Sequence record: MW749009.1
Reading direction: 5' to 3' (one strand)
DNA: 60,862 nt
Source: Bacillus phage vB_BspP_Dartukuta
Shown in pieces: positions 2,662 to 60,625 of the stretch. Below the pieces are notes generated by a model. That model was not told where the DNA came from. It did no database searches and was given only the letters and a program-made list of their open reading frames with translations. Within the stretch, counting starts at the first letter, position 1; each line of letters opens with the position of its first letter. Made by a program: the position numbers and the translations under genes.

Positions 2662-2885
2662 AGCCCATGCTCCAGCAGATCAGCAATGGCCGCCGTCGAT
2701 TGATCTGGCTCACCAAGCTTAATTAGCGTTATCACCCGATCCATTCGGATCAAGTATTCGACTGCATTATCGATAGCCCCACCAATAAGTTTTGGATCGG
2801 GCATAACGTGCGTATTAACGTCGCTTTTATCGCGACGCCATAAGTTATAGGCAGCAAGAAGCTCTGCCGTTTGCTTGGCGTTCAT
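2658..2885 (-). CDS. Hypothetical protein (75 aa)
   Basis: ORF in the same minus-strand operon, start overlapping the upstream gene stop; no recognisable motif. Confidence 0.4.
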   Translation of the reverse strand: MNAKQTAELLAAYNLWRRDKSDVNTHVMPDPKLIGGAIDNAVEYLIRMDRVITLIKLGEPDQSTAAIADLLEHGL

Positions 2886-2933
2886 AATTCACCACTTACC
2901 GTATTTGTTTGAGCGTGACGCGAGCGCGTGACG

Positions 2934-3179
2934 TTATGAGAAAATTGTTTGTTTCTGCTCTGGCGTTAAGAACTTTGCACCATGGATCAGTCGAGTGATC
3001 ACGTCTTGCGGCTCGTCGATGCCAGTCTCGATCAAGAGCTGATCAAGAGCCTCGTTAGTGCTGTGAAAAAGCTGCAGCTTGATTGTCTTGGCTAGCAGTA
3101 CTGCCAGCCTTTCTTCTTCGCGCAGCTTGTCGCGCGCACGCTTTTCACGCATGCGCTCAGCTGCTGTTTTAGCTGCCAT
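2934..3179 (-). CDS. Hypothetical protein (81 aa), charged/helical
   Basis: ORF track; operon context only. Confidence 0.4.
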   Translation of the reverse strand: MAAKTAAERMREKRARDKLREEERLAVLLAKTIKLQLFHSTNEALDQLLIETGIDEPQDVITRLIHGAKFLTPEQKQTIFS

Positions 3180-42616: not shown

Positions 42617-45600
42617 ATGAGCTTTGAAGTTGATTTAGACAGCGCTGTTCTTGAGGGTGATTATTATGGAGATGATACTAGGGTCAAGCCTGAGAGCAGC
42701 AGTTCAGGCTTTAGCCCTGAAGCAGGTCCCGCAAAGCAGCCAGCTCCCTTTAGCGTTGACCTAGAAAGCGCTGAGCTAGACGAAAAAGCCAACCAGGGCT
42801 TTATTGGAACATTAGCTGACGGTGCAAAATCGGCAGGTAGAGCCATTAGCTCTACTTACAATACTTATACTGGCGATGGTCAAGCAGTTGTTGATAACGC
42901 CAAGGCTCAAGAACTGGCCAATGAAGATAAAAGCCAAGACATTAAAAACTTCCAGTCTGACTGGGCGGCAAATACGGGCGCAGGTACTGATGACGAAGTA
43001 GGCTTATGGGGTGCTATCAAAGGCACTGGAAAGGCAATTATTGATAACCCTCGTGGTGCCGCCCTTTCAGTAGTTGAGCAATTCCCTAATTCAGTTCCAG
43101 CACTGGCCGCAGGCTGGGCAGGCGCTAAAGGCGGCGCAATGGCAGGGGGCGCAGTCGGCTCGGCTTTTGGTGGTGTCGGCGCTGGGCCTGGCGCTTTAAT
43201 TGGTGGCGCCGCGGGGTTTGTTGGCGGCATGTTCCTCGGTAATACGTTGACCGAAACGGGCCATAAGGCGCAAGAGTACGCTGCCGATGGTGAGTTCACG
43301 CCAGATGAGCAGTCAGCAGCTATTACCGAGGGCGCGAAAAAAGCCGGTGTTATTACAGCCGTAGATGCGCTTACCTTTGCTGTCGGTGGCAAGGTTTCTG
43401 GATACTATCGGAAAACAGCAGAGTCAACAGTTGAGGCAGCTACTCGCAAAACACTGCTTGACGCTGGTGTTGATATTAGCGATACAGCAGCGCTTACTGC
43501 GGCAAGAGGTAGCCCACAAATTGCAAGCCAAGTTGTTGAAGCGCAGAAAAATGCGGCAAAGATTGCAGACAATCTACGCAAGCGCGCAGGCGAGGCAGGC
43601 GCGCTACTTACAATGGAAACAGTCGGCGAAGGCTTAGGTGAATACTTAGGCGAACTGGCAGCGACTGGACAAGCAAGCGTAGCAGAGGCCGTGCTAGAGA
43701 GCTTCTTGTCGCTAGGTCAGTCTGGCGTTCAGTCGATGTTTAACTTTGCCAAGGCGCGAGAGCGTTCGCTCACTGACCAAGAATGGATTGATGCGTCAAA
43801 CGGTATTGCGCCAGAAGGTATGGCACCAGAGCAAATGCCGGTTGCTGATGGTATATGGGATAAGCCAACTCCAGAAGCCAAGATCGACATGGGGCAGATG
43901 CAGGGTGGCGGCGTAACACCGACACCTGTATTTGACCCGCAAGACATTGATCGCAACCTTGCACCGACACCATCGCAGCAAATGGGAATTAACCCTGATG
44001 CTGGCCCACTTTCTGCTGCTGCAGCGCAGTCAGTTGATAGTGGCTTGTTTACAGGCGGGTTTACCCCACAAGCCGGAATTAACCAATCGGCACTTGAGCG
44101 CGAGGGCGTAACGCCGCCGCCAGTATTAGATACTGACCAGATTGACCGCAACTTAGGAAGTATTGATCCATTAACAGGTGAGTACATGCCTGCACCTGAG
44201 CAGTTAGGTCAGTCGAGTCAAGCGGGAGGCGCCGGTAATTATGAGTATGACCAATGGGGCAACCTAAGCAGCGTTGATGGCCGCACAGTAGATGGTTACG
44301 GTCAAAACCAACCACGCCTTGGTTTTAATAGTAAAGCCGAGCGCAGCACCGCGCCGTTATATGAAGTTGGGCCTGATGGTGTGGCGCGTCCATCTTCAGG
44401 AGAGGCGGCGCGGAGTAGAAAAGAACGTATTGACCTATCATCGCTGAAAGGTAGACAGCAAACCCAAGCGCAAAAACAGCCTGCTGCTATGCCAGAGCAG
44501 CGTAGTCCTGAACAGCAAGCGCAATCTATCTGGGATTCAATGAATACCTTTGAGCGTAACGCTGCAGCAGCAAATGTTCTTGGTATGCGCGGCGTACCGG
44601 CTAAGAATGCAGCCACAAAAGCATGGGATAAGCTAAGCTCTGAACAGCAGGCCAAGCTCGTAACTGGACTTGAGAGCCAGCAAGGGAAACGCTGGATAGA
44701 CCCTAATCAGAAAGTGACTGACCAAACTGGCCCTGTGCTACAAAACCGCGACCGCACAAGCCAAGACTCAATCAATCAGATGCGAAGCATCTCAAACAAT
44801 CCAGACTACAGCAGGTTAAAAACATCAGGCTTCTTGTCTGACGGTGCGCCTGTTGTTGTTGATGAGAATATTCAAATACCAGCGTCACAGATGGGCGTTA
44901 CTGATACTGCTTCTGCAGGAAACGAGCGCTTTAACGTGCAGTACGCAGTAGTTGAAGCCGACCAGTTAATGACCAGTAACAGCATTGACGGTACCACTAA
45001 CGCTGAATACCAGACAGGGGCTGCAGGTAAGGCTAGAGCAATTGCAGGTAATGGACGAATCACTGGCTTGCAATCAGCATGGGCTAAAGGCAACGCCAGC
45101 CAATACAAAGCCGATATGGCAGCCGATAGAATGCACGGCATTGACCCGGCCGTTATTGAAGGCATGCGCAATCCTGTTTTAGTCCGCTTATTGCCGCAGG
45201 ATCAGGTCACTGACAATATTGGCGACCTAAGCAACAGAGACGAGAAAGGCAGACTTTCGCCGGTCGAGCAAGCCAAAACAGATATGGGCCGCATTGACCT
45301 TGATAGCCTAAAGTTTACTGCTGAAGGTGCTATCGGTGGCGAAGCGATCCACCAGTTCCGCATGGCTCAACCTGCAGCTGAGCGCGTGAGTGAGGCAGAG
45401 GCACGGAAGCGACTGACTTCTGCTGTCTTCCAAAAGGCATACGGAAACGATCAGCTTACAGAAATCCAGTCTGGTGAAAGTGACGATGCCAAATCAATCT
45501 TATCAGCACTGGCACAAGCAGCCCCAAGCATGTCACGTCTTGAAGGAGCTGGTGAGTTTGATATTCGCCCACTAATCACGCAGGCAGGCATTGCGGCTGT

Positions 45601-48600
45601 AAACGCAGCGCGTAGAGGCACTAAACTTGCTGATTATGTTCAGCAGTCAGAAATGGGTATTGATCCAATGGTATACCCAATTCTGGAAATGATGCTGAAC
45701 GAGAATGGCAATATCCGTAGTAGCAAATACATCGGCGAACAGCTAACCAATATGGCAAAGTTGGCTTATGATGAAGCCAACTCACCTAGCTCAGATATGT
45801 TTGGCGAAAAACCCAAGCGTACAGCTGAGCAGGTTATTCAAGACGCGCTTACTGGAGTACAAGGTTATGGCCAAATCAATGACGGAAGAGGGCAAGAAAG
45901 TCTGGGGCAGCGAGGGCGGTCAGAACCTGATGCGCAAATGGTTGAAGGGCCAGAAGGCGGACGAGAGCGACCAGCAGACACTAGACAAACTGCACCAACT
46001 CAACCAGAAGCAGAGCAAGAACAACCCGCAGCAGTAGAAAGCAATGCGCCTGAAACATGGCGCAGTAACTACATTCAAGCCGCCAAGATTGCACGCGAAA
46101 AAGGCATTAATCCTAAGCAGCATAAAAAACTCGCTGACTTGGTTGAAGCTATTGATGCGTCAAACACTAAACCTGAAGCTCAAACACAGCTAACAGCACA
46201 ACAGAAGCAGGCTTCAGGCAGTGTAGATGGTGCAAAAGTCCATCTTAACAACAGCATTGACCTAACCAGCGCATTAGCTGCAATCGCACGCGGCGCACAA
46301 TTAAGCACCGAGCCAAACGGTGACGTTATTCTTAGTGGCACCAAGATAATTACGCTTCCAAAGCCGCCAACTTCTATTGATGAAGTTATTGCCCCGTTAG
46401 CCACAGCCTTACTAGAACAAATGCGAGCAGATGGCGTTTCTATGCCTGGCAACCCAGCGGACATGACGCGGGATCAGTTTGCTATTGCCTATCACTTTGC
46501 AAACATAATTCCAGAGTTTGAAATCAGCGGAGCAGATATTGGTGGCGTAGTCCAAGGATCAAGCCGTGGCTTAACAGTAGACTCAGACAAGCTATACGAC
46601 AAGATCATCGAGCAAGCCAAAGAGCAGGCTAAACCAGCCTTGGAGCTTAACCAGCAAACCGAAGAATCCTTAGCTAAAGATGCCAAACGATTAGAGCAGC
46701 TGCAGAAAGAAGAAGCTGCGCAGAAAGTCGCGCAGAAAGCTGCAGAAAGGAAACAGCGTGAGCGTGACGCAGACAAGGCCAGAGCGGACGAAGTGGTTGA
46801 TGACTTCCAGTTGGGGCAGTCTGCAGAAGAAGTAATGTCTGGCATGGGTGATATTTTTGCGACTGAGAGCAAGCCAGCAGATAAAGGCATTGCGTCTCAA
46901 GCCGATGACAGCCATGTCACAGTTGTTGATAACCAATACAACCCAAACCCTACAGAAGCGCAGAAGCAGGCTGGCAACTACAAGAAGGCTCACGTTAAAT
47001 TCCAAGGCCTTGATATCACAGTAGAGAATCCAGTCGGATCAGTGCGCAGTGGCGTAGATCCTGACGGCAATACTTGGTCAAATACTATAAAGCATGATTA
47101 CGGATACATTAAGCGCACTAAGGGCGCTGACGGCGACCATGTTGATGTGTTTATAGGTAAAGATACCGAAAGCGATAAGGTATTTGTAATTGATCAGCCG
47201 CACAAAAACGGTAAGTTCGACGAACACAAAATCATGCTCGGCTTTAAAGACCAGACGCAGGCCGTAGAAGCGTACAAAGGCAACTATCAGAAAGACTGGA
47301 AAGTTGGCTCTGTCACTGAAATGACTGTGGGCGAATTTAAGCAGTGGCTTAGCAATGGTGATACCACCAAACCGGTTGAGCCAGTCGCGAAGCCAGCAGC
47401 GCAAACAAAGCCAAGCCAAGCCATTGAGGACTTTGGTGAGAGGCTGGAAGGCGCACGCAAGGATTACGCCAGCAAACTATCTGACGCTAAAGAGGTAGAC
47501 ATTGCGACTGAGCCACTATCAAAGTCTTGGCCAGAGCCGAATTATCAGAAGTTGATTGACGGAGGAATGCCGCTAGAAACAGCAAGTATTGTTCGTGCTA
47601 TTCGTGATGAGATTCCAGTGAAGCCGCGCGCATCATGGCGACTGAAAGGATGGGTGCGACAAGTAAGCGAAATGCGTGATTTAGCCTTGAATTTGATGGG
47701 GGAAACAGCTACAGCTAAAGTGATTGTAGAGCAGATAAAATCTAATAAATCTTTATCAGACATAGTGAATCGTGCAGACCTGTACTCGGCAGTTGGGCAC
47801 GATAAAAGCCTAAAAGATATTAGTTTAAAACAAAGCTCTTACTCGTTGATTGATGGTGTTAAATACTCGCCACCGAAAGAGCTCTGGACGGTTGAAAGGC
47901 CGATTAAAAGCAGCGTAATAAGCAACATGCCCAGACGTATTGCGACAGCTGAAACAAGAGAGCAAGCGATTGCCAAATTCAAAAATGCGTATGCAACATT
48001 GGACGAAAGCAAACGTGTCAAGAACAAAGCAGTTGAGTTTGGGGTTTATACAGACAGAACCACAAAAGATGTTTTCATTGGCCGGAAGGTTGGCAAAAGT
48101 ATTGCTCGCGTAAAAACTGGATTCGAAACTGCTAAAGATGCAATTGCACACCTAAAGGAAAACTATGCTGCTCTTGAAGAGCGGTTTAACAAGATGAAGG
48201 ATACGCCCGATCATCGTAAGGCTGAAAACTCACCTAGAGTTGGCGTTGATCACCGAAATGGCGCGGATGTAACACCGGAGCAGTTCTCTGATACGTTCGG
48301 GTTCAGAGGGGTGCAGTTCGGTAACTATGTAGAGCAAGGACGTAGGCAGCAGGATCTAAATGAAGCCTATGATGCGCTTATGGACATGGCTGGCGTGTTA
48401 GGTATTCCAGCAAAATCTCTATCTTTAAATGGTGAGCTTGGACTAGCGTTTGGTGCTCGTGGTAAGGGTGGAAAACAAGCAGCTAAAGCGCATTATGAGC
48501 CAGATCAAATTGTTATTAACTTAACTAAGAAAAATGGCGCAGGCAGCCTTGCTCACGAATGGTGGCATGCGCTTGATAACTATTTTGGCCGCGAGCGTGG

Positions 48601-51600
48601 CGGTAAAAGCAATGAAATGTATGCCTCAGACAATCGAGCTCACGCGACAGTCAGACCTGAAATGGCAAAGGCTTATCGTGATATTGCAAGCGCAGTAAGC
48701 CGAACCAAGCTGAAGTTTCGTTCAGACAAGCTCGATAGAATGCGCACAAAACCATACTGGGGTACCGGTATAGAAATGACTGCGCGATCTTTCGAGAGCT
48801 ACGTTATTGAGAAGCTGCGTGATAGCGAGTTATCTAATGATTATTTAGCCAATATTGTTGGCGAAGATTACTGGAATGCTGCGGCAGCACTGGGCATTGA
48901 AAAGGATGGTACTTATCCGTATCCAGAGGCGGCTGAGATACCGGAAATCCGCGCTGCGTATGATAACTTTTTTAACACTCTAGAAACAAAGGAGGGTGAA
49001 GATGGCAATGTCCTGCTTTTTAGCTTTGCAGGCAAGACTGCTCGTGGCGCTGATCTTATGGCGCTGGATCAGGCTCAGTTGCGCATTGCTTCTGGTGACA
49101 ACGCCGAGACTGTACGCCAAGAAACAGGTTGGCACCGTGGCGATGATGGAAAGTGGCGCTTTGAGATCAGCGATGATCAAGCCAAGCTGCGCGTAGCTGG
49201 TAAAAATGCAGGTGAGCTTATTGACTCAGCCGCGCTTGACGCGATCACCGGTGGCCGCAAGTTCCCAGTGACTTCTGACCTGATCGACCACGCTCAACTA
49301 TTTGTTGCCTATCCTAAACTAAGCAATATCAAAGTAGAGAAAATGCCAGAAGGCGGTACCGCTCTAGCGCGATTAAAGCGCAGAGCTACAGGCTTCACTA
49401 TCCAGTTGCGCGATAACTTGCCACGCGAGAAAGTGGCGTCTGCAATCTTGCATGAGCTACAGCACGGCATTCAGGTTTACGAAGGCTTTGCCGTAGGCGG
49501 CTCTAAGAATATGGTCTTCAGTGATCTTGATATGAGTGGAGCCAAGGCGTATCGCGCACTTGCCGGTGAAGTGGAAGCGAGAAATACCCAAACACGCCAC
49601 TCTATGACGCCAGCTTTGCGCCGCAACATTGCGCCTGAGCTGACTCAGGACACGCCAAGTGCAGACGTGATCGTCACGTTCAACGGTAAGGACATTACCA
49701 ACAAGGCAATTCCTAATAACGTCAATAACGCGCCGATAACTGATGCCTCGCTGGTGCGAGCGTTCGATGTACAGTTCCCTCGGTTAACTAAAGCTGTGCG
49801 CACCATGCTTGCCCGTGGTAATAAGGGCGAGCGTGGTGGTGTGGTCGTGATTGATAGCGCTGATCCATTGATGATTGCCCGTGCGTTCGCCAAGAAAACA
49901 GGCAAGCCAATATCGCAGTCGGTGCAAATGTTCTCAGACGCTGGTGTGATCAATGGCTTCTTTGATCCTAAGTCTGGCCTTACCTTCCTTGTTGGTCCGA
50001 ACTTGAATCCAGTCACCGGCACAGCTGTTTTGCTTCACGAAATGATCCACGGTCAACAGCGCCAGAAGATCGACAAGGCCGCACTTGCCATGCTGATGAA
50101 TCGCGGCAAAGAGAAAAACGCAGAAACACGAGCGTTCCTTGATCGCGTAGCTGCTCGCATGGATGATGCTGGCGAAACAGCGAACGCACAAGAGGCAGGC
50201 GCTTACATTGTTGAGCAGGCCGTAATGGAAGGTAAGAGCGCTGGTTATGGCACTGCAGACAGCCGATTCCTTTCATGGGTAGACCAACATATTGGTAAGA
50301 CGGTAGGTGACTTCTTACGCTCGTTCATCGGTAATTTGCGCAGCTGGGCGCTGCGTAACGGCTTGCCTATTGGTCCGATTACTGTGGACGATCTTGTTAG
50401 CTACGCAATGGCAGGTATGAAGCAGGCTGGTCGCGGTAATGTTGATGGCGGTGCCGCTGGGTTCAGTCGTGACGCAACAGCTAGCCTAGAGGATGCTCTA
50501 GCGAAACTTGATGCGCTCGGCCTGAAGCATCGGATCAGCGAGCGCAACGATGTTATTACTGTGAGCAAGATTGAGGTGCCCGAGGGCGCTAGAGGTCAGG
50601 GCGCTGGATCATCGGCAATGCAAGCCCTGATCGACTACGCGGACGCCACTGGTAAGCACATTGCTTTAACACCAACAGCCGATTTTGGTGGTAACAAAGC
50701 AAGGCTTAAGGAGTTCTATCAGCGCTTTGGATTCAAGGAAAATAAGGGTAAAAACAAAGTTTACGAAGTCTCAGAAGGAATGGTTCGCGAAAATCCGAAT
50801 GGGCGCACCCTATATTCAAAGGGCATCACTGAAGATCTAGCAGAAGGCCAGCGGCAGTTTGCACAAACAGAAAATGCTTACGGTGGTCGTGCAGCCTACG
50901 ATCAGGCAAAATCAGAGGGCAAGACCAAGCTGAACTATCAGCAGTGGGTGCAGGTACGTACGCCTGCTTTTAAAAACTGGTTTGGGGATTGGGAAAATGA
51001 ATCAGAAAGAGTTGAGCGAAAAACAGAAAGAGTTCAGGAGGTGGCTGGACGAAACACTGCCAAACCCAACGCCAGAGCAACTCAGCCAGCTGGACGAGCG
51101 TGGCGACTGGATCCAGAAACCGGAGAGCCAAGAATCTTCTATCACGGAACCAAAGACAGCTTCACCGTCTTCGACCTAGATCACCAGAACAGAAAGGATC
51201 ACGGCTGGTTAGGTACAGGTATTTACACTGGAAGCGATAAACTTTTAGCAGAGTCATACGCAAGGCTGAAAGATGGCTCAGGTGAGCCGCGAGTTATGGA
51301 GTTTTTTGCAAATGTAAGGAACCCATATAAGGCTACTATAGAAGATAAGCAGCGGGGAAGATTTGCTGATAGAGCTTACGCCGACAGAGTTACAGAAAAG
51401 TTAAAAGAAGCTGGATACGACGGTGTAGTACTTCCGTTCGCAGATGGCAGTGTCGAGCTGGTGGCGTTTGATAAGCCGCAGATCAAATCAGCCACCGGCA
51501 ACGTCGGTACGTTTAGTGCAGACAATGATGATATACGATTTAGCTTTGCCGGCCAAAGGTCAGGAACAGCCGACCACTACTCATTAGGGTCAGCGCAGCA

Positions 51601-54600
51601 GCGCATTGAATCCGGCGAAAATGCAGAAGCGGTGCGTCAAGACACGGGCTGGCACAAAGGCATTGATGGCAAGTGGCGCTACGAAATTAGCGACCATGAC
51701 GCAAAACTACGCAAGCCATTTCCATCTAAGGGCCAGCTTTGGGGTGGAGTTTACGAAAGTGTCAACCAGTCCAAGGTGCAAAGAGGCGAGGGATACGGTA
51801 TCAGCCTAGGCGAAATACTGGATCACCCTGCACTATTTGCGGCATACCCGCATCTTGCAAGCCTATCTGTAAGCACGCAAAAGGGTAGCGGTGCGTCATA
51901 CGAGTCCGGCAGCCCTTCCAGTCCGGCATCTATCAGTATCGGCACCGATGTGCCAATGTATGACGTGCCAAGCAAGCTGCTGCACGAAATCCAGCACGGC
52001 ATTCAGAATATTGAAGGGTTTGCGCGTGGCGGCACTTTAGAAACGGGCGCTGGTTTGAGCAACCTTCATGCTCTACTTGAAAAGCAGAAGAATGAATTTG
52101 AAAACGAGCACGGGTTCAACGACTGGATTTTTGAACTAATACTGGAGCAGCCAAAACGACATAAAGCCTTGATGGACGAGGGCGCAAAAGATGGGTATTC
52201 ACTCCGTTCGCTATATCAGTCTTTTGCTAGTGAGAAGCTATCAGAAGAAGATCGCGGATATTTCGTATCGAGGATGCTGGGTTATGAAGATAAACTAAGA
52301 AAAGTCGCGCTTTCAAAGCACATAACTCCGAGCGAGTTCTATCAACGATTAGCAGGCGAAGTTGAAGCCCGCAACACCCAGATCCGCCATAAGATGACGG
52401 CTGAACAGCGCAAAAGCACACCGCCAAGCGCAACGCAAGATGTATCCGATGCCGATGCCATTGTCATGTTCAACGGAACGGAAATGCACAACGCGCCCGC
52501 ACCGGCAAACACCGGCACAAGCGACATTCGCTTCAGCCGCTCAGCTAACCCAGCTTCAATAAGCGCGGCACCAAACGGAATGGCAGCTTGGGATAGCCCT
52601 TCGGCATCGAAGTTCGATGACTTTGTTTACAAGATGCAAGATAAGCACGTTGATACAAAGCGCGTGATTGAAGCTATCCGCGACACAGGTAAGGCAATCA
52701 GCGATGACCTAGACGTATACCTGCAAGAAACATTGTTTCATGGGCGAGCAGCTAAGCGCACGCAAGACTTCTTAAACAAGGAAGTAAACCCGCTTATTGA
52801 GTACATGCAAAGCGCCAAGGTTGAAATGAGCGATCTTGAAGAGTTCTTGCACGCACGACACGCACAGGAAGCTAACGCGCTGATTGCTAAGCGCGATCCT
52901 AATATGCCTGATGGTGGGTCAGGTATGACAAACGCTGAGGCCGCAAAATACCTTAATTCGCTAAATGGCGTTCGACGTAAGCAATTAGAGAACGCTGCAA
53001 AGTTTGTCGATAAGATTATCGGTGGAACACGAGAAACCATTGTTAGCTATGGCCTTGAAAGCCAAGAAACGGTTGATGGCTGGACAGCCGGATTCAAGCA
53101 TTACATTCCGCTGCAGCGTGAAGATAAAGACGGCCAGATGGGTATTGGCCAAGGCTTCAGCGTTAAAGGAAAAGAGACTAAAGGACGCACAGGCTCAACA
53201 CGTAAGGTTGTTGATATTCTGGCCAACGTGATGATGCAGCGTGAGCGCGCCATTGTTCGTGGTGAGAAAAACCGAGTAGCAGTTGCATTGCTAGGACTCG
53301 CTAAAGATAACCCGCTACCTGAGTTCTGGCAGGTTGATAAAGTTCCGACAACACGGGTGCTTGATAAAGTAACAGGCTTGGTACGCAACCAAGCGGACCC
53401 TATGTACAAGAGTAGAGACAACGCTATTGTAGCTAAGGTAAACGGCCAAGAGCATGCGATCCTGATGAACGAAGACGACCCACGCGCAATGCGCATGGCC
53501 GAGGCTTTAAAGAATCTTGATGCGGCACATCTGGAAGGGTTGTTAGGTGCTACAGCCACTGCGACACGATACTTTGCAGCAGTGAATACGCAGTACAACC
53601 CGATATTTGGCGTAACAAACTTTGTTCGCGATATTCAAGAAGCCATGCTTCACTTACAAAGCACGCCACTAGCAGGGCAGCAGTCGCGCTTGTTCAAAAA
53701 TACATTCACCGCAGTTGGCGCGGTAATGAAAGCAGAGCGCGACGGCAGAAAAGGAAATAATGCAACAGGGAAGTGGGGCGTTTTATGGGAAGACTTTCAG
53801 AATACCGGTGGGCAGACTGGCTTCAGGGATCAGTTCAGCAATAGCGCAGATCGCGGCAAAGAGATCCAGCGAGCTTTAACACCGGATGGCTGGGCGGAAA
53901 CAGGCTTAGGCAAGTTCTTTACCGCCAATGGAGCACTTAAAGCACCGCTCGAAGTAGTGCGCAAAAAAGCGGCATGGCTGTTTGATCTGCTATCTGATTA
54001 CAACACGGCAATGGAAAACGGCGTGCGATTATCTGCTTATGAGACTGGGATTAACGCTGGCATGAGCAAAGAGCAGGCGGCAGCACTGGCCAAGGGATTG
54101 ACCGTTAACTTTAATCGAAAAGGCCAAGTTACCCAGCAAGTCGGCGCGCTCTATGCGTTCTTCAATGCGAGCGTGCAAGGTACTGCTCGATTAGGTCAGT
54201 CGCTGTTTGATATGGATGCTGGCAAGCCTAAAACGCTACGCCTATCGTCTCTAGGGAAGAAAATCGTATCAGGCGGCGTTATGCTGGGCGCGTCTCAGGC
54301 TGTACTGCTAGCGATGGCTGGCTTTGATGATGAAGAGCCGCCTGAGTTTATCCGTGAGCGCAACATCATCATACCGACGGGCGGAAAAACCTATATCAGC
54401 ATACCAATGCCGCTTGGCTATCACGTTATCGCAAACCTTGGCCGTATACCGATGGAGTTTGTTCTTGGTGGTGGAAAAGATGGCGCTAAGCACCTGTTTA
54501 ACCTAATGGACGTAATGGCAGACATTTACAATCCAATCGGTAACTCAGGCTTATCCATGCAAACAATCGCGCCTACTGTGCTCGATCCGCTTGCTGGCCT

Positions 54601-55228
54601 TGCAGAGAATAAAGACTTCTCAGGTCGTGCGATTGCAAAAGAAAGCTTTAACCGCCAGACGCCAGGTCATGCGCTCGCAAGAGATACGGCATCACTGCCG
54701 GCAACATGGCTGGCTGAATTAGTCAACTATGCAACAGGCGGAACTGAGTTTACCCGTGGCGAGTTATCACCAACACCTGATCAAATTGATTACCTTGTTG
54801 GTCAGCTAACCGGTGGTGTAGGCCGAGAAACCACTAAGTTTATGAAGTCGATTCAGGCGACTGCCACCGGTGATGATTTGCCTTGGCACAACATTCCGTT
54901 AGTCGGCAGGTTTTTTGGTGACGCAGACAGCGACGGAGCCAAGCAGTCAGCCTTTTACAACAGCATGGACAAGGTGCGTAAGCATGCTGAGGAAGTGAAA
55001 GGTTTGCGCGCCTCAGGAAGATCAGGCGAGGCAGTCGAGTACGCCAACAAGCACCCTCATGCCAAGCTTCATCTAGCAGCCAGAGCAGCAGAAAAGCAAG
55101 TGAAGGATATGCGCGATCGTAAGCGTGATCTTGAGCAGGCAGGCGCGCCACGGGAAGAAATACGCGCACTAGAGAAGCGGATGGTTGAGCGCATGGAGCA
55201 ATTTGTTGAGCTGGCCAAGGCGCAGTAA
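42617..55228 (+). CDS. Giant multidomain (polyvalent-type) protein, 4203 aa
   Basis: Single uninterrupted ORF. By eye: Gly-rich hydrophobic segment (aa ~145-215), pyrophosphatase-like DYGYIKRTKGADGDHVDVFIG (~aa 1505), HExxH sites at aa ~1980, 2279, 2474 and 3123, a duplicated ~200-aa module (GWHRGDDGKWRFEISD / GWHKGIDGKWRYEISD), GNAT-like RGQGAGS...FYQRFGF (~aa 2660), ART-like YHGT...GIYTG...VELVAF (~aa 2840-2950), hydrophobic C-terminal region. Confidence 0.7.
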   Translation: MSFEVDLDSAVLEGDYYGDDTRVKPESSSSGFSPEAGPAKQPAPFSVDLESAELDEKANQGFIGTLADGAKSAGRAISSTYNTYTGDGQAVVDNAKAQELANEDKSQDIKNFQSDWAANTGAGTDDEVGLWGAIKGTGKAIIDNPRGAALSVVEQFPNSVPALAAGWAGAKGGAMAGGAVGSAFGGVGAGPGALIGGAAGFVGGMFLGNTLTETGHKAQEYAADGEFTPDEQSAAITEGAKKAGVITAVDALTFAVGGKVSGYYRKTAESTVEAATRKTLLDAGVDISDTAALTAARGSPQIASQVVEAQKNAAKIADNLRKRAGEAGALLTMETVGEGLGEYLGELAATGQASVAEAVLESFLSLGQSGVQSMFNFAKARERSLTDQEWIDASNGIAPEGMAPEQMPVADGIWDKPTPEAKIDMGQMQGGGVTPTPVFDPQDIDRNLAPTPSQQMGINPDAGPLSAAAAQSVDSGLFTGGFTPQAGINQSALEREGVTPPPVLDTDQIDRNLGSIDPLTGEYMPAPEQLGQSSQAGGAGNYEYDQWGNLSSVDGRTVDGYGQNQPRLGFNSKAERSTAPLYEVGPDGVARPSSGEAARSRKERIDLSSLKGRQQTQAQKQPAAMPEQRSPEQQAQSIWDSMNTFERNAAAANVLGMRGVPAKNAATKAWDKLSSEQQAKLVTGLESQQGKRWIDPNQKVTDQTGPVLQNRDRTSQDSINQMRSISNNPDYSRLKTSGFLSDGAPVVVDENIQIPASQMGVTDTASAGNERFNVQYAVVEADQLMTSNSIDGTTNAEYQTGAAGKARAIAGNGRITGLQSAWAKGNASQYKADMAADRMHGIDPAVIEGMRNPVLVRLLPQDQVTDNIGDLSNRDEKGRLSPVEQAKTDMGRIDLDSLKFTAEGAIGGEAIHQFRMAQPAAERVSEAEARKRLTSAVFQKAYGNDQLTEIQSGESDDAKSILSALAQAAPSMSRLEGAGEFDIRPLITQAGIAAVNAARRGTKLADYVQQSEMGIDPMVYPILEMMLNENGNIRSSKYIGEQLTNMAKLAYDEANSPSSDMFGEKPKRTAEQVIQDALTGVQGYGQINDGRGQESLGQRGRSEPDAQMVEGPEGGRERPADTRQTAPTQPEAEQEQPAAVESNAPETWRSNYIQAAKIAREKGINPKQHKKLADLVEAIDASNTKPEAQTQLTAQQKQASGSVDGAKVHLNNSIDLTSALAAIARGAQLSTEPNGDVILSGTKIITLPKPPTSIDEVIAPLATALLEQMRADGVSMPGNPADMTRDQFAIAYHFANIIPEFEISGADIGGVVQGSSRGLTVDSDKLYDKIIEQAKEQAKPALELNQQTEESLAKDAKRLEQLQKEEAAQKVAQKAAERKQRERDADKARADEVVDDFQLGQSAEEVMSGMGDIFATESKPADKGIASQADDSHVTVVDNQYNPNPTEAQKQAGNYKKAHVKFQGLDITVENPVGSVRSGVDPDGNTWSNTIKHDYGYIKRTKGADGDHVDVFIGKDTESDKVFVIDQPHKNGKFDEHKIMLGFKDQTQAVEAYKGNYQKDWKVGSVTEMTVGEFKQWLSNGDTTKPVEPVAKPAAQTKPSQAIEDFGERLEGARKDYASKLSDAKEVDIATEPLSKSWPEPNYQKLIDGGMPLETASIVRAIRDEIPVKPRASWRLKGWVRQVSEMRDLALNLMGETATAKVIVEQIKSNKSLSDIVNRADLYSAVGHDKSLKDISLKQSSYSLIDGVKYSPPKELWTVERPIKSSVISNMPRRIATAETREQAIAKFKNAYATLDESKRVKNKAVEFGVYTDRTTKDVFIGRKVGKSIARVKTGFETAKDAIAHLKENYAALEERFNKMKDTPDHRKAENSPRVGVDHRNGADVTPEQFSDTFGFRGVQFGNYVEQGRRQQDLNEAYDALMDMAGVLGIPAKSLSLNGELGLAFGARGKGGKQAAKAHYEPDQIVINLTKKNGAGSLAHEWWHALDNYFGRERGGKSNEMYASDNRAHATVRPEMAKAYRDIASAVSRTKLKFRSDKLDRMRTKPYWGTGIEMTARSFESYVIEKLRDSELSNDYLANIVGEDYWNAAAALGIEKDGTYPYPEAAEIPEIRAAYDNFFNTLETKEGEDGNVLLFSFAGKTARGADLMALDQAQLRIASGDNAETVRQETGWHRGDDGKWRFEISDDQAKLRVAGKNAGELIDSAALDAITGGRKFPVTSDLIDHAQLFVAYPKLSNIKVEKMPEGGTALARLKRRATGFTIQLRDNLPREKVASAILHELQHGIQVYEGFAVGGSKNMVFSDLDMSGAKAYRALAGEVEARNTQTRHSMTPALRRNIAPELTQDTPSADVIVTFNGKDITNKAIPNNVNNAPITDASLVRAFDVQFPRLTKAVRTMLARGNKGERGGVVVIDSADPLMIARAFAKKTGKPISQSVQMFSDAGVINGFFDPKSGLTFLVGPNLNPVTGTAVLLHEMIHGQQRQKIDKAALAMLMNRGKEKNAETRAFLDRVAARMDDAGETANAQEAGAYIVEQAVMEGKSAGYGTADSRFLSWVDQHIGKTVGDFLRSFIGNLRSWALRNGLPIGPITVDDLVSYAMAGMKQAGRGNVDGGAAGFSRDATASLEDALAKLDALGLKHRISERNDVITVSKIEVPEGARGQGAGSSAMQALIDYADATGKHIALTPTADFGGNKARLKEFYQRFGFKENKGKNKVYEVSEGMVRENPNGRTLYSKGITEDLAEGQRQFAQTENAYGGRAAYDQAKSEGKTKLNYQQWVQVRTPAFKNWFGDWENESERVERKTERVQEVAGRNTAKPNARATQPAGRAWRLDPETGEPRIFYHGTKDSFTVFDLDHQNRKDHGWLGTGIYTGSDKLLAESYARLKDGSGEPRVMEFFANVRNPYKATIEDKQRGRFADRAYADRVTEKLKEAGYDGVVLPFADGSVELVAFDKPQIKSATGNVGTFSADNDDIRFSFAGQRSGTADHYSLGSAQQRIESGENAEAVRQDTGWHKGIDGKWRYEISDHDAKLRKPFPSKGQLWGGVYESVNQSKVQRGEGYGISLGEILDHPALFAAYPHLASLSVSTQKGSGASYESGSPSSPASISIGTDVPMYDVPSKLLHEIQHGIQNIEGFARGGTLETGAGLSNLHALLEKQKNEFENEHGFNDWIFELILEQPKRHKALMDEGAKDGYSLRSLYQSFASEKLSEEDRGYFVSRMLGYEDKLRKVALSKHITPSEFYQRLAGEVEARNTQIRHKMTAEQRKSTPPSATQDVSDADAIVMFNGTEMHNAPAPANTGTSDIRFSRSANPASISAAPNGMAAWDSPSASKFDDFVYKMQDKHVDTKRVIEAIRDTGKAISDDLDVYLQETLFHGRAAKRTQDFLNKEVNPLIEYMQSAKVEMSDLEEFLHARHAQEANALIAKRDPNMPDGGSGMTNAEAAKYLNSLNGVRRKQLENAAKFVDKIIGGTRETIVSYGLESQETVDGWTAGFKHYIPLQREDKDGQMGIGQGFSVKGKETKGRTGSTRKVVDILANVMMQRERAIVRGEKNRVAVALLGLAKDNPLPEFWQVDKVPTTRVLDKVTGLVRNQADPMYKSRDNAIVAKVNGQEHAILMNEDDPRAMRMAEALKNLDAAHLEGLLGATATATRYFAAVNTQYNPIFGVTNFVRDIQEAMLHLQSTPLAGQQSRLFKNTFTAVGAVMKAERDGRKGNNATGKWGVLWEDFQNTGGQTGFRDQFSNSADRGKEIQRALTPDGWAETGLGKFFTANGALKAPLEVVRKKAAWLFDLLSDYNTAMENGVRLSAYETGINAGMSKEQAAALAKGLTVNFNRKGQVTQQVGALYAFFNASVQGTARLGQSLFDMDAGKPKTLRLSSLGKKIVSGGVMLGASQAVLLAMAGFDDEEPPEFIRERNIIIPTGGKTYISIPMPLGYHVIANLGRIPMEFVLGGGKDGAKHLFNLMDVMADIYNPIGNSGLSMQTIAPTVLDPLAGLAENKDFSGRAIAKESFNRQTPGHALARDTASLPATWLAELVNYATGGTEFTRGELSPTPDQIDYLVGQLTGGVGRETTKFMKSIQATATGDDLPWHNIPLVGRFFGDADSDGAKQSAFYNSMDKVRKHAEEVKGLRASGRSGEAVEYANKHPHAKLHLAARAAEKQVKDMRDRKRDLEQAGAPREEIRALEKRMVERMEQFVELAKAQ

Positions 55229-55237
55229 CATTTTGAT

Positions 55238-55274
55238 CGCCTCGCCCTCAGCAATGAAGGCGAGGTTTAATGTT
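55238..55274. terminator. Stem-loop terminator between the convergent giant gene and antirepressor
   Basis: CCTCGCC (55240..55246), 12-nt loop, GGCGAGG (55259..55265), then TTTAATGTT. Confidence 0.45.
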
Positions 55275-55301
55275 AAGTTACGCCTGAAAATGCACAGCTG
55301 C

Positions 55302-56174
55302 TTACTGCCCTACACAGCTGTAATGATTAATCCGAAGCTTGCGCTGGTAGTCGTCTAAGGCTTGCGCGTAGGTTTTGACTAGCTGGTTTGCATGGCGGTT
55401 ACCATCCAGAATATGGTCAATCATTTCAATGCCAGCACGTGAGCCTAGGGCTTTCAGTGATTCATACATATTGTACTTGTTAAAAATATCGTACAGATGA
55501 TTCATGTGATTGCTCAGCAGGTAAACCTTATACAGGTCGTCTTCGGTCATGACGCCGTTAGGTTCCTCTTTGCCAAGAAACTCACCCTCAAGAGTTATGC
55601 GAGCCACTAAGCTGACTGCATCACTAAATTGGTCTGACTCAATCTCTTTGTATGAGCAACCAAACTTGGATTTGAGTGCTGACCAGCAAGTGATGGCTGC
55701 TTTGGCCTGTTTGCTTGGTGGCAGAGTTTCAACACGGGACTTTACTAAATCTTTGATGATGGATTGCTGCTCGATGGTGAGTGGAGTTCGGAGTGTTTTT
55801 TGAGCACGATGGTTAACAGCTTCGCCTTGCTGCCAGTAGTTGGCCAAGACCTGATAGCACTCACGCTTGTACTGAATCAGCGCAGGCCGGATCTCTTCGC
55901 GACAACGGCTCACATCAATGCCGAACAGCCAGCCGTTTAGGTATTCGAGTGGGAGACAGAGAAGTTCACGCTGTTTATTATCTTCGGCAACTGTATTCAT
56001 CATGAATACGGTTGAGCCTAAAACCTCGTCACGCATGATTCGGTTACGCTGTGAGCCCCACGCCAAACCGATGCCTTCGCAAACTGGACGCATAGCAACG
56101 AGCTGCTGATTATTATGGGTTATGACAGTAAGAGTGTGGTTGTGAAACTGGACTGAAGCAACTTGAGTTTTCAT
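55302..56174 (-). CDS. Phage antirepressor (Ant-like N-terminal domain)
   Basis: ORF track 55302..56183 begins on GTG; ATG at 56174. N-terminus VQFHNHTLTVITHNNQQLVAMRPVCEGIGLAWGSQ resembles the P22 Ant N-terminal domain (from memory). Confidence 0.6.
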   Translation of the reverse strand: MKTQVASVQFHNHTLTVITHNNQQLVAMRPVCEGIGLAWGSQRNRIMRDEVLGSTVFMMNTVAEDNKQRELLCLPLEYLNGWLFGIDVSRCREEIRPALIQYKRECYQVLANYWQQGEAVNHRAQKTLRTPLTIEQQSIIKDLVKSRVETLPPSKQAKAAITCWSALKSKFGCSYKEIESDQFSDAVSLVARITLEGEFLGKEEPNGVMTEDDLYKVYLLSNHMNHLYDIFNKYNMYESLKALGSRAGIEMIDHILDGNRHANQLVKTYAQALDDYQRKLRINHYSCVGQ

Positions 56175-56194
56175 AGTGAGCACCTTTCAGATTT

Positions 56195-56420
56195 GAGAGG
56201 TTCACCACCGAAGCGACCAAGCAAGGGTGGCGAACTGTACGCAGGTTGGTCGACCGGGCGAAAGGACCCCGGCACACCCGAAGGTGTCCCACGCACAGCC
56301 CGCCATAACGCGGGCACAAAAAAACCGCTGATGCGGCGTTGTGCGCCTTTCAAGTTCCGGGCGACCAAACCCGTATCGCTGAATTTGCAGCGACGCGGGA
56401 AAGGTAGCCTGAAAATAGCA
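56195..56420. ncRNA. GC-rich structured non-coding region; candidate regulatory RNA upstream of ant
   Basis: Several short GC stems with 4-nt loops (CCGGG..CCCGG, ACACC-CGAA-GGTGT, GCCCGC-cataac-GCGGGC); only short overlapping ORFs in several frames on both strands; GC visibly higher than the flanks. Strand and family undetermined. Confidence 0.3.
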
Positions 56421-56523
56421 AAGCGTCAAATAGAAAGTGATTTTATGTATTAAGTGGCTTACTTGACTAGAAGTGATGGCGTGCTAACTTAACTAATTCT
56501 TATGTTCAAAGGATGGAATCATC

Positions 56524-56886
56524 GTGGTAAACACTAAAGCGCTTGTATGCGCAGCAATTATGTCTACAGGGTTATTATTACCAGCCACTGGTAGTGCCTA
56601 TACAGGTAATGATTTAGATATGTGGTTATCTTCACATGCTAGGGTAGTTAGTGGTACAGGAAATGCTAAGGACTTAGAAAACTTAGATTTTCTTACGGGG
56701 TATGTGGCTGGCACGTATGACGCACTTGATGTGACAGGGAATCTGTGCGCGCCAAATAATGTGACTTTATCTCAGATGATAGCGGCGGTGAGTAAAGAGC
56801 ATAAGAACAGCCCTGAAAAGTGGACTGAAAATGCTCGCGGTATTGTGATTGTCGGCTTGGTCAGATCTTTCCCCTGTGGTAAATGA
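56524..56886 (+). CDS. Secreted hypothetical protein (120 aa) with N-terminal signal peptide
   Basis: GTG start with AAGGA upstream; hydrophobic N-terminus ALVCAAIMSTGLLLPATGSA, then Cys-containing mature region. Confidence 0.5.
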   Translation: MVNTKALVCAAIMSTGLLLPATGSAYTGNDLDMWLSSHARVVSGTGNAKDLENLDFLTGYVAGTYDALDVTGNLCAPNNVTLSQMIAAVSKEHKNSPEKWTENARGIVIVGLVRSFPCGK

Positions 56887-56998
56887 TGCTTACTGAAGCG
56901 GTTTACTCACTGGCATGGCTCTGTGAGAAATGCTCTGAAAACCTTAGAGTTCAGACTTGAGTTGAGCTCTAAGGCTAAAGCGAACAGCATTTGTTTGC

Positions 56999-57820
56999 TT
57001 ATTGAATTGAAGAAACGCACTGGCCTTTGATGTAAACGAATAGTGATCGACCGTCATTTAAGCTGTACACCCATTGCTCTGTGCCGACTATCAGCGAGTT
57101 AACTGATGATGGGGAGCCAATAGCGCTTCGCACCTCGCTACTGGTCATACCTTGCCATATTTCTTTTTGGCCTATTCTCACTATTCCTCGTTTGGGCTTT
57201 CGAGCAGTGCAAGCTTCGCGGCTACCATCTTGTGGGCGCGGGTCATTCATCTTGTTCTCGATTTGCTTGAGTCGTCTGTCGAGAGGGCTCTGGTTAGGAT
57301 TGTAATGCACTTCGCGATCATTTATTTCAGGAAGAGCATAATCAGGCTGGGAAGAAGTTGTCGCCCTTGGTGATGAAGTTAGGCCAACTTCTCTGGCTTC
57401 ACGGCGCAGGCGAACAGCGCGAGCTGCTTGGCTTTCGCGGCTTGAATCGTGAACTACCGTCACACCGCTAGGGTTTTCCTTACGTTTCCTGGCTATAGCT
57501 TCTTCCTTTTCCCGCAAGCGGCGGTTGATTAGGCCGCCAAGGGTAGAAGGGTCTTCTGCACGAGGATCTGGCACGACAGTGACCTTCATTGTTGAGCTAG
57601 AAGGATTGCTGCGAGCATATTCAATTTCTCTGACCTGCTCTGGAGTCGCGAATGTTCCTATCTGATTGGTTTGAGTGTTAACTATCTCGGACACACCTTC
57701 AGGTGTTGTACAAGGCACGTTTGCGAAGCTCACTTTTCCGTCAGGGCTTATGCACTTATAGACTTGACTATAGGCGAGTACTGGGGTCATAAAAACAGCA
57801 AGCATGACGTAATTCCACAT
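56999..57820 (-). CDS. Secreted protein with DUF4124-like N-terminal domain (~274 aa)
   Basis: ORF track 56999..57868; ATG at 57820 with AGGAG upstream; signal peptide MWNYVMLAVFMTPVLAYS then QVYKCISPDGKVSFANVPC; Ser/Arg-rich middle. Confidence 0.5.
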   Translation of the reverse strand: MWNYVMLAVFMTPVLAYSQVYKCISPDGKVSFANVPCTTPEGVSEIVNTQTNQIGTFATPEQVREIEYARSNPSSSTMKVTVVPDPRAEDPSTLGGLINRRLREKEEAIARKRKENPSGVTVVHDSSRESQAARAVRLRREAREVGLTSSPRATTSSQPDYALPEINDREVHYNPNQSPLDRRLKQIENKMNDPRPQDGSREACTARKPKRGIVRIGQKEIWQGMTSSEVRSAIGSPSSVNSLIVGTEQWVYSLNDGRSLFVYIKGQCVSSIQ

Positions 57821-57908
57821 AGCATTTCTCCTGAAAATTCCTTGTGTTGTTTTATAAGCTGCAAGCAAAAAACCTAATATATCAAAGCATCCGGCAGATT
57901 ACCTTAGT

Positions 57909-59432: not shown

Positions 59433-60625
59433 ATCCTCCCCGACCTAAAGGACGGGGATTCCTACTGCTAGACGGCCATGCCCGACCGCGAGAATGTTAC
59501 GTGCCGCGTTTACATCGCGATCGTGAGTGACACCGCACTCACACGTCCATTCTCTTATTCCAAGCCCTGCGATACCTTTCGGCCTGCTATCGGGCAGTGC
59601 GCCACAACAGCTACAGGTTTGGGTGGTGTATGCCTCGTTCACTTCCTTAAAAACAATGCCTGCGTGAGCGCATTTATAGTCCAACATTGTTTTTAATTGG
59701 CCCCAGCCAGCATCTAACACTGACTTGGCCATCTTGGTTTTAACGAGTTTTAAACTACTGACATTGCCCACATAGATCTCACCGCAGCGGTTGACCAGCG
59801 TGCGACTGAACTTGTGCAGCGTATCTTTTCTACGGTTAGCAATCTTGGCGTGAATGGTTTTGACTTGAGTTTTATTTCTAGCCCGTTGCGCTATGGCTAA
59901 TTTCTCTTCAAGGCCACGGTAGAAACGACCGGCTTCCAGCTTTGTGCCATCTGAGCAGGTGGCCGTATCCGTTAAGCCTAGATCAATACCGATGCGGTCT
60001 TGTCCGACTGGGATCTCTGACTGCACATCCACCACCACATTAAAGTACCAGCGGCCACGCGCATCCTCATTGAAACTGGCAGTACGAAAACGGTGTTGGC
60101 CAAGGCCGTAGCTGTCCCACACTCCAAAGTATTGGCCGTTGAAATAGACTTGCCCGCTTTTCCACTGTGCTGCACCGGTGTTTACCGGAATCCAGCCTAA
60201 TGAGCGGCGTACGCCGCCTGACTTGCGCCAGTTCAGCCTGGTCTTGTTAAACTGTTTGCGGCGAGTCACGTACTCACCAGCAATGCACTGCAAGGTTTGG
60301 CTGTGCAAGCCCAGTTCCTTGCCTGCACCTTTCGTATAGGGATGCATATCGTAAGCTGATAGAAACACACTGCGCTCTTTGATCGAGCGCTGGCTTAATT
60401 CATTCACAAAGTTCCAGACGAAGTTCACGGCCATGGCTTGCTTGCGCAGCAATGAAATGTGCTTATCCTTGATACGAACTTTGAGTGTTTTGGTGTGCTT
60501 AATCATGCTGTATACAATACCAGTACTTACCCTTAGCGCCAATACTTTAGCAGTCTATTAAGGGGCGGCTTGCGCCGCCCTCGCTATCCATCCTCGCACT
60601 AAAAGTACGAGGTCTTTCGCGAAAC
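59433..60625 (-). mobile_element. IS200/IS605-family TnpB-only insertion element (ends approximate)
   Basis: tnpB flanked by similar subterminal hairpins: CATCC-TCCCCG-loop-CGGGGA at 59433..59458 and CCATC-CTCG-loop-CGAGG at 60588..60612, plus GGGCGGC-ttgc-GCCGCCC at 60563..60580. No tnpA ORF in the window. Confidence 0.6.
59445..60506 (-). CDS. tnpB: TnpB (RuvC-like RNA-guided endonuclease of IS200/IS605-type elements)
   Basis: RuvC-I IGIDLGLTDTATCSDG, zinc finger CSCCG...CECG, RuvC-III THDRDVNAARNI. ORF track 59445..60542 begins on TTG; first ATG at 60506 (MIKHTKTL). Confidence 0.9.
   Translation of the reverse strand: MIKHTKTLKVRIKDKHISLLRKQAMAVNFVWNFVNELSQRSIKERSVFLSAYDMHPYTKGAGKELGLHSQTLQCIAGEYVTRRKQFNKTRLNWRKSGGVRRSLGWIPVNTGAAQWKSGQVYFNGQYFGVWDSYGLGQHRFRTASFNEDARGRWYFNVVVDVQSEIPVGQDRIGIDLGLTDTATCSDGTKLEAGRFYRGLEEKLAIAQRARNKTQVKTIHAKIANRRKDTLHKFSRTLVNRCGEIYVGNVSSLKLVKTKMAKSVLDAGWGQLKTMLDYKCAHAGIVFKEVNEAYTTQTCSCCGALPDSRPKGIAGLGIREWTCECGVTHDRDVNAARNILAVGHGRLAVGIPVL

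Follow-up and report, generated by a model that had tools for sequence, protein, structure and literature searches.

A C4 family RNA with two sets of complementary sites upstream of the antirepressor gene of Bacillus phage vB_BspP_Dartukuta

Bacillus phage vB_BspP_Dartukuta (sequence record MW749009.1) carries an antirepressor gene, ant, preceded by a short unannotated stretch at positions 56195-56420 of the 60.9 kb of DNA that were analysed (hereafter the window). The window is that of a temperate phage, with an integrase, an S24-type repressor, structural genes and a lysis cassette. The ant gene occupies 55302..56174 on the minus strand, encodes 290 amino acids from the ATG at 56174 and contains the Pfam domain P22_AR_N (E = 5e-38). 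An earlier reading of the letters alone (the sequence-only reading) had described the stretch upstream of ant as GC-rich and structured, and had proposed that it encodes a regulatory RNA comparable to c4 of phages P1 and P7. Here we describe the element at this locus, a member of the C4 antisense RNA family, together with its putative target sites. The element was analysed on the minus strand, the strand of ant, and all of its features given below are on that strand.

The stretch is indeed GC-rich. The GC content is 60% in 56195-56420 and 70% in the C4 core (56225-56304), against 50% for the window and 46% and 38% for the two flanks. This places it at the 98.9th percentile among all segments of 226 nt, and six separate regions of the window get this high. 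Only short overlapping open reading frames (ORFs) are present, of 34 and 96 amino acids on the plus strand and of 65, 68 and 75 amino acids on the minus strand. The ACACC-UUCG-GGUGU hairpin that had been picked out by eye is found on the ant strand at 56287..56274. The 88-nt C4 stretch folds at -47.6 kcal/mol on the minus strand (z = -3.9), and one of 200 shuffled sequences folds equally well; on the plus strand the same 88 nt give -31 kcal/mol (z = -0.1). The fold of the whole 271-nt leader has a z of -5.2. The structure of the stretch exceeds chance and is strand-specific.

The covariance search that the sequence-only reading had suggested was made with Rfam on 55000-58000 and, at gathering thresholds, on the whole window. 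Three matches exceed the gathering score, all on the minus strand; a1b1/isrK comes first, then C4, then ant. The C4 antisense RNA (RF01695) is matched at 56310..56223 over its entire length (model positions 1-87 of 87), with 72.7 bits against a gathering score of 45 (E = 1e-13). The c4-a1b1 motif (RF03163) is matched at 56354..56407 with 52.6 bits (gathering 46.7, E = 9e-12) and the isrK-type short RNA (RF01394) at 56318..56394 with 54.9 bits (gathering 50), each by the full model. In the same search the element of phage P1 scores 68.8 bits for C4, 51.0 for a1b1 and 35.1 for isrK. Since the scores of the window equal or exceed those of P1, whose element is experimentally defined, the element described here fits the models at least as well as the prototype does. 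A CRISPR-DR33 match on the plus strand was dismissed as noise (16.6 bits against a gathering score of 39, E = 7).

The minimum-free-energy fold of C4 is the Rfam consensus fold. RNAalifold recovers this fold from 29 sequences, P1 included, and 12 of the 25 pairs have compensatory changes. Two hairpins, one capped by a tetraloop and the other by a large loop, and a single-stranded junction are enclosed by a long outer stem. Hairpin 1 is the UUCG hairpin (56274..56287), in which one G-C pair has become C-G in 11 of the 29 sequences. Hairpin 2 (56273..56253) has a 9-nt loop that carries the segment b', CCUUUC (56260..56265), and the junction carries a', CGACCAA (56246..56252). Alignment to the annotated 77-nt c4 of P1 predicts a mature RNA of about 79 nt at 56304..56226. 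Its predicted 5' end is at U|G (56305/56304), within U|GGCGGG, and its 3' end is GCCACC at 56231..56226. Both ends are nearly invariant in the family alignment and resemble the acceptor end of a tRNA. This fits the listing of the C4 RNA of P1/P7 as a substrate of RNase P (PMC2190699), and by analogy RNase P would excise C4 in this phage also.

Both a' and b' have exactly two complementary sites in the window, one in each of two sets on either side of C4. The downstream set is in the leader of ant. It consists of a2 (UUGGUCG, 56220..56214), complementary to a', and b2 (GAAAGG, 56188..56183), complementary to b'. The b2 site, 8 nt upstream of the ATG, is also the Shine-Dalgarno sequence of ant, so pairing with C4 would stop ribosome binding. 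The upstream set consists of a1 (UUGGUCG, 56368..56362), complementary to a', and b1 (GAAAGG, 56351..56346), complementary to b' and located in the upstream leader 10 nt after a1. The a' segment can form seven Watson-Crick pairs with each of a1 and a2. The pattern TTGGTCG-N(10-40)-GAAAGG has two occurrences in the 60.9 kb, at a1b1 and at a2b2, for a chance expectation of 0.11. C4 is not antisense here in the sense of a transcript from the opposite strand; it would be co-transcribed with ant and pair with short sites in the very RNA from which it derives.

The recognition sequences were then compared among 120 viral contigs, which had been fetched with a pattern fixed on hairpin 1 of C4. Loop and junction could be parsed in 123 instances and gave about 70 distinct combinations. 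For 52 non-identical loci with full flanks, each RNA was compared with the targets of its own locus (cognate) and with those of the other loci (non-cognate). The mean longest Watson-Crick run is 7.7 cognate against 4.5 non-cognate at b2 and 7.0 against 4.7 at b1, and runs of at least 6 bp are found in 98% against 11% and in 87% against 10% of the comparisons, respectively. The corresponding values are 7.0 against 4.7 at a1 (100% against 9%) and 6.3 against 4.7 at a2 (75% against 18%). The loop and target sequences therefore vary between loci yet stay complementary, and nowhere does the family vary more than in the loop of hairpin 2. The position of the downstream sites is fixed. The a2 site is at +68 to +75 nt from the start of hairpin 1, the distance of b2 is fixed as well, and b2 is 5-12 nt upstream of the start codon in the 50 of 52 loci in which a start codon was found. 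The pair CGACCAA and CCUUUC of the window is unique among the 123 instances, and one other locus has the same a' only.

The full-length Rfam match and the complementarity of the C4 loop to the Shine-Dalgarno sequence of ant support the earlier proposal of a P1/P7-type c4 RNA upstream of ant, and both had been named in advance as checks on it. We consider it very probable that the stretch is a P1-type C4 regulatory RNA with two sets of target sites. It would be a known device with a recognition specificity of its own, in an uncharacterised temperate phage.

The element extends beyond that proposal, since an upstream, putative decoy-target module, a1/b1, with a terminator of its own (isrK/c4-a1b1) is present in the stretch as well. 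The c4-a1b1 motif contains hairpin 1 (56394..56375) and hairpin 2 (56373..56358), the loop of which carries a1. The isrK-type RNA comprises two hairpins, b1 and an intrinsic terminator at 56337..56318, in which a hairpin (56337..56324) is followed by T7. The accumulation of an IsrK-like RNA, its binding of Hfq and its activation of antirepressor translation in trans are known only for the Salmonella prophage Gifsy-1 (PMC4825925). The interval 56195-56420, as originally drawn, covers C4 and a1/b1; it omits b2 and the Shine-Dalgarno sequence (56188..56183) at its low end and a putative -35 hexamer (56429..56424) at its high end.

This hexamer, TTGACG, is part of a probable operon promoter at 56401..56429, with a 17-nt spacer and the -10 sequence TACCTT (56406..56401). 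Transcription is predicted to start near 56394. By position the promoter is the homologue of P1c4/P51b (TTGACC-17-TATAGT), which is annotated in P1, and the equivalent sites in Pseudomonas phage loci read TTGACG-17-CATATT, TTGACA-17-CATAGT and TTGACG-17-TACCTT. A consensus scan called a second promoter-like site, TAGTCA-18-TAAAAT (56440..56469), which may be due to chance. The promoter-like sites are 40 bp apart in the window, and the two c4 promoters of P1 are 41 bp apart. A search for a repressor operator in the c4-ant promoter region that recurs elsewhere in the window found no shared word of 13 nt or longer, and shorter matches were inside genes.

The immI region of P1 and P7 is the prototype with which the locus can be compared. 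The GenBank record of P1 lists, on one strand, promoters, a1, b1, c4 (77 nt), a2, b2, icd and ant. It places b2 at the ribosome-binding site of icd and describes a2/b2 as C4 binding sites with the note 'repression of icd ant translation'. In the window, too, promoter, a1, b1, terminator-like hairpin, c4, a2, b2 and regulated gene follow one another on one strand. The window also shares the C4 fold with the tRNA-like U|G...GCCACC end, the UUCG hairpin, the b' loop and the a' junction. In both, b2 lies over the ribosome-binding site of the first gene and the final output is an antirepressor. The recognition sequences differ. As read from the P1 sequence, a is UUGACAG and b is GUUAGUGA/C, the junction contains a' (CUGUCAA) and the loop of hairpin 2 contains b' (UCACUAAC), whereas the window has UUGGUCG and GAAAGG in place of the UUGACAG and GUUAGUGA of P1.

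A second difference was not part of the earlier proposal. P1 has icd between c4 and ant, whereas the window lacks icd and has only 37 nt from a2 to the ATG of ant. The ant gene is downstream of C4 on the same strand, and no ORF is found in the 51 nt between the predicted 3' end of C4 and the ATG. The window thus holds a member of the C4 family but not a P1-type three-gene immI operon. The proteins differ as well. Ant of the window carries a P22_AR_N domain, and the main repressor is of the CI/LexA type (S24) and not of the C1 type of P1; a C1-type operator was not found at the c4-ant promoter of the window. In P1 the block of icd translation abolishes the coupling to ant, and Rho-dependent termination follows. 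For the window the simpler expectation would be that the RNA acts on ant directly, by occlusion of its ribosome-binding site.

The closest experimentally studied relative of the module is the isrK-STnc1160/orf45-anrP locus of Gifsy-1. In Gifsy-1 (NC_010392, 34316..34076, minus strand) an isrK match of 79 bits is followed by a C4 match of 69 bits (34214..34131) and by the start of anrP. The two loci agree in their three Rfam elements and the order of these, in the direct layout without icd and in the position of b2 on the Shine-Dalgarno sequence of the antirepressor gene. The recognition sequences of Gifsy-1 are AUUGGCGU for a and UCACCG for b, and its b2, UCACCGGAGG, runs into the Shine-Dalgarno sequence of anrP. 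A short terminated IsrK RNA, read-through transcripts and a stable processed RNA of about 80 nt, STnc1160, which comes from the position of C4, have been described in Gifsy-1 (PMC4825925). Its anrP is transcribed yet untranslated, and extra IsrK leads to 139-fold more anrP translation, for which G28 and G31 are required (PMC4825925). On our alignment G28 and G31 fall in a1, and C162 and C159, with which they are reported to pair, fall in a'.

The published compensatory pairs G28:C162 and G31:C159 coincide with the a1:a' pairing of Gifsy-1 (UUGGCGU / ACGCCAA). The orf45 frame starts at the conserved AUGG of C4 (34210), and the C4 match occupies the place of orf45/STnc1160. As judged from the sequence, orf45 would coincide with a C4 RNA. 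The published model of Gifsy-1 is based on a translated orf45 and on alternative folds of the mRNA, and does not mention phage P1 or c4 (PMC4825925).

Together these features suggest the following mechanism. Transcription from the sigma-70-type promoter would begin near 56394, and the first 77 nt or so would constitute the IsrK-type RNA, with two hairpins that display a1 and b1 ahead of the terminator. Transcripts that read through would carry C4, and by analogy with P1, RNase P would free the stable RNA of about 79 nt (56304..56226). The freed C4 would expose b' in its loop and a' in its junction, and these would pair with b2 and a2 in the leader of ant. C4 bound to b2 would block ribosome binding, so that no Ant would be made, the CI/LexA-type repressor would stay active, and lysogeny and immunity would be kept. 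The presumed target of Ant is the repressor encoded at 11639..12277 on the minus strand (Pfam HTH_3 and Peptidase_S24). The a1/b1 sites would be a second target for the same C4 loops. The terminated RNA could act as a competitor that titrates C4, C4 could modulate termination at these sites, or both could apply; either would make the system self-regulating. This is the least certain step, and most likely a1/b1 is a competitor and/or a site of C4-modulated termination. By analogy, the trans data of Gifsy-1 fit a sponge, whereas its cis data for a1 fit better with C4 at a1/b1 promoting termination, and both may be at work.

Two further structures concern the leader of ant. An alternative hairpin can form between GGUGGUGAAC (56200..56209) and the 3' strand of C4, GUUCGCCACC (56235..56226), and its loop contains a2. 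This helix appears in the minimum-free-energy fold of the leader and covaries across 40 loci, with a mean longest run of 8.6 bp for cognate against 6.4 bp for non-cognate combinations. It spans 56235..56200 and, as long as the transcript is unprocessed, competes with the outer stem of C4. In most relatives the Shine-Dalgarno sequence is also sequestered by a hairpin, AGCUCC...GGAGCU, of which b2 occupies the loop and the 3' arm.

Several points weigh against this interpretation. Single a or b duplexes are of 6-7 bp, with energies of about -9 to -11 kcal/mol, which is not above the values that these GC-rich probes reach against random 60-nt windows of the same sequence. Duplex energy alone was rejected as a pointer to the a and b sites, since it does not single them out, and because it is unexceptional the case rests on the co-occurrence of the two sites and on their covariation. 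The loci used for the covariation were chosen with a fixed hairpin 1 pattern and are one subfamily of related, not independent, sequences. The promoter was recognised by homology; its -10 sequence TACCTT is weak, and the consensus scan did not call it. The absence of icd means that the coupling and the Rho-dependent polarity of P1 are not transferable unchanged. Finally, cis mutations in a1 of Gifsy-1 raised the expression of anrP, which a pure decoy model does not predict for a1/b1.

Different explanations of the stretch have to be weighed against a C4 RNA that blocks translation. The RNA could act mainly in transcription termination, as the CI RNA of satellite phage P4 does, with premature termination as the outcome of the a/b pairing. 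Like C4, the P4 CI RNA is processed from the leader of the operon that it controls and has target sites on both sides, seqA and seqC (PMC4825925). The terminator directly after a1/b1 agrees with such a role, and the authors of the Gifsy-1 study raised termination as an option and likened IsrK to seqA of P4 (PMC4825925). The P4 RNA differs in that it causes termination of transcription and controls replication genes, not an antirepressor, and the Rfam search reported no P4-type match in the window. Termination is reportedly also part of the P1 system, in which the 1992 work of Biere, Citron and Schuster is said to have found it as a secondary result of translational repression. However, b2 is on the Shine-Dalgarno sequence, and its position 5-12 nt before the start codon in 50 of 52 loci is not explained by selection for termination alone. 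No terminator-like hairpin is present between a2/b2 and ant, and the effect of extra IsrK in Gifsy-1 was 139-fold on translation but 8-fold on transcription (PMC4825925). Termination as the main function therefore appears unlikely to us, and it may operate as a second layer beside the translational block. We give still less credence to a purely cis-acting leader, an attenuator or a set of alternative hairpins from which no diffusible RNA is released, and regard it as quite improbable. The intrinsic terminator within the leader, the conserved alternative helix with a2 in its loop and the weak hairpin that sequesters the Shine-Dalgarno sequence of ant are what such a leader would have, and two alternative conformations were reported for the long Gifsy-1 transcript (PMC4825925). 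Yet a cis structure and a trans product are compatible with each other. The homologous RNAs are released, as a trans-acting c4 in P1/P7 (PMC8546580) and as the stable processed species of about 80 nt in Gifsy-1 (PMC4825925), and the near-invariant tRNA-like end would be needless in a purely cis element.

The least credible alternative, in our judgement a very remote one, is that the stretch encodes one or more small proteins, such as an orf45-like leader peptide coupled to ant, and that the RNA structure is incidental. There are short ORFs on both strands, a 'hypothetical protein' is annotated over the homologous region of phage PAShipCat1, and the authors of the Gifsy-1 study regarded the frame that begins at the conserved AUGG as orf45, translated and coupled to anrP (PMC4825925). 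In the window, however, the counterpart of orf45 is a frame of 34 codons that stops 27 nt before the ATG of ant and is thus not coupled to it, and no Shine-Dalgarno sequence precedes the AUGG (56306). A conserved coding frame in homologous phages, which the sequence-only reading had named as evidence against an RNA, is absent. Among 40 related loci the AUGG frame ranges from 14 to more than 100 codons and its stops are at unrelated positions, and 11 of 39 loci lack an open frame across the region in any of the six phases. High GC content alone yields spurious ORFs, and the substitutions track base-pairing, as seen in the compensatory changes of 12 of the 25 pairs. A C4 RNA acting on the ribosome-binding site of ant remains the preferred explanation of the locus.

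Elements related to this C4 RNA are found before diverse genes. In a BLAST search of 1.2 kb comprising ant and its leader against phage records, only the RNA part of about 200 nt (56213..56392) is matched, with 84-87% identity; nothing close to ant or to the promoter region is present among these records. The nearest relatives of the RNA are in Pseudomonas aeruginosa phages of the PAJU2, YMC11/02/R656 and PAShipCat1 types, with weaker matches in other Pseudomonas phages. All of the matched Pseudomonas phages carry a1b1/isrK and C4. The cassette is directly before an annotated antirepressor or its homologue and next to a divergent endolysin cassette in four of the five records with annotation, the exception being phiAH14b. 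The loop and junction sequences of these phages differ from those of the window and from one another, and by eye each fits its own a1/b1 and a2/b2. The PAJU2-type phages share with the window the direct layout of a1b1/isrK, C4 and ant and the neighbouring divergent endolysin cassette. They differ in their recognition sequences (b is GGUAAGG and a' is CGGCCAA) and in their Ant, which has a Bro-N domain where that of the window has P22_AR_N. The similarity of the RNA cassette and the dissimilarity of ant and promoter point to cassette exchange, and the comparison suggests that the RNA module has been exchanged as a unit between phages.

The genes that follow C4 in the 52 loci encode antirepressors with the unrelated N-terminal domains P22_AR_N, Bro-N, ORF6N or AntA, or else a small ORF of 48-119 amino acids. 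Three of the small ORFs were tested and did not match the NCBIfam model of Icd, which P1 Icd does match; one of the small proteins is a DUF6124 protein. In PAShipCat1 the coding sequence WVW38027.1 (2471..2704) runs across a1b1/isrK and C4 and is probably a false gene prediction within GC-rich DNA that encodes RNA. In Phipami28 an int-alpA RNA (RF02996, 54 bits) is found at 1060..1127, about 1.3 kb upstream of the a1b1/C4 module.

An exact 30-mer of the C4 loops had no match in 100,044 representative genomes, and a megablast of 54000-60862 against Escherichia coli genomes found no match. A protein identical to Ant was not found on record either. The best genome-encoded relative of Ant, with 49% identity, is in Oceanospirillum sediminis D5. 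It is preceded not by C4 but by sRNA-Xcc1 (RF02221, 62 bits; 2770..3003 of the contig). Like C4, this sRNA-Xcc1 has an outer stem, two hairpins, a single-stranded junction and a CACC-type tail. Its junction UUCUCA fits UGAGAA sites upstream and downstream, its loop CUUGUAU fits AUACAAG upstream and at the Shine-Dalgarno sequence, and a terminator is present between the upstream sites and the RNA. Rfam keeps sRNA-Xcc1 outside the C4 clan; it may be a further divergent branch of the C4 device. A different RNA brake on a P22_AR-type antirepressor is sar of phage P22, which is encoded on the opposite strand across the ribosome-binding site of ant and is fully complementary to it. The window differs, as the regulator is on the ant strand and the plus strand has no excess structure (z = -0.1).

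Other features of the phage lie around the locus or share its history. Divergent from the c4-ant operon, a 120-amino acid protein with a Rap1a immunity-protein domain (E = 6e-13) is encoded at 56524..56886 on the plus strand, and adjoining it a 289-amino acid DUF4124/BamE-like protein at 56999..57868 on the minus strand. Both genes are between the tail/virion genes and the lysis cassette and are possible lysogenic-conversion cargo. On the other side of ant, a single plus-strand ORF of 4203 amino acids (42617..55228) encodes a 'polyvalent' protein with ddrB-ParB, InPase, LPD1/5/23/38 and ART-PolyVal (ADP-ribosyltransferase) domains and a weak GNAT match. Phage matches to 30000-54000 are limited to about 550 nt, at 72-75% identity, in F116-like Pseudomonas phages. 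A 365-amino acid TnpB-type protein (OrfB_IS605 and a Cas12f1-like TNB domain) is encoded at the phage end, after the lysis genes (59445..60542, minus strand). The early region contains a tRNA-Arg with the anticodon TCT (9883..9959, minus strand); Gifsy-1 too has a tRNA-Arg near isrK/anrP (33093..33171 of its record).

Two short Logan contigs reached via the Rap1a protein, from ERR14847265 and ERR14847264, are 98.6% and 99.8% identical to the window, respectively. The contig from ERR14847265 has no mismatches in the RNA leader and 21 in ant, all in the 3' two-thirds of the gene, and its genes past ant are unlike the 4203-amino acid gene of the window. This pattern suggests a recombination junction inside or just past ant. 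Because the mismatches are clustered toward the 3' end of ant, the clean leader is not counted as evidence for purifying selection.

With this analysis a GC-rich gap that lacked annotation, and whose ORFs are spurious, can be annotated in the phage as a defined immunity element. The analysis also predicts a recognition code, UUGGUCG for a and GAAAGG for b. In the P1/P7 paradigm such a code sets the heteroimmunity among related phages, and by analogy it would specify the immunity of this phage through the repression of Ant by C4. The code is particular to this element; the direct layout without icd is also present in Gifsy-1 and in PAJU2-like phages. The known principle is unchanged, and the annotation is for that reason useful rather than surprising. 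The comparison also portrays the C4 cassette as a unit that travels between phages of distant hosts and comes to lie before unrelated types of antirepressor.

A broader reading would join these observations into a three-part RNA switch in which a1/b1 is a sponge, the IsrK system of Gifsy-1 and immI of P1 are one device, and sRNA-Xcc1 is a further branch of it. We hold this joint reading tentatively, as a serious possibility. The short terminated IsrK-type RNA may then be a phage-encoded sponge for C4, and the ratio of termination to read-through at 56318 may decide whether Ant is synthesised. If this is true, the IsrK system of Gifsy-1 and immI of P1 would be a single widespread device, attached interchangeably to at least four unrelated antirepressor families.

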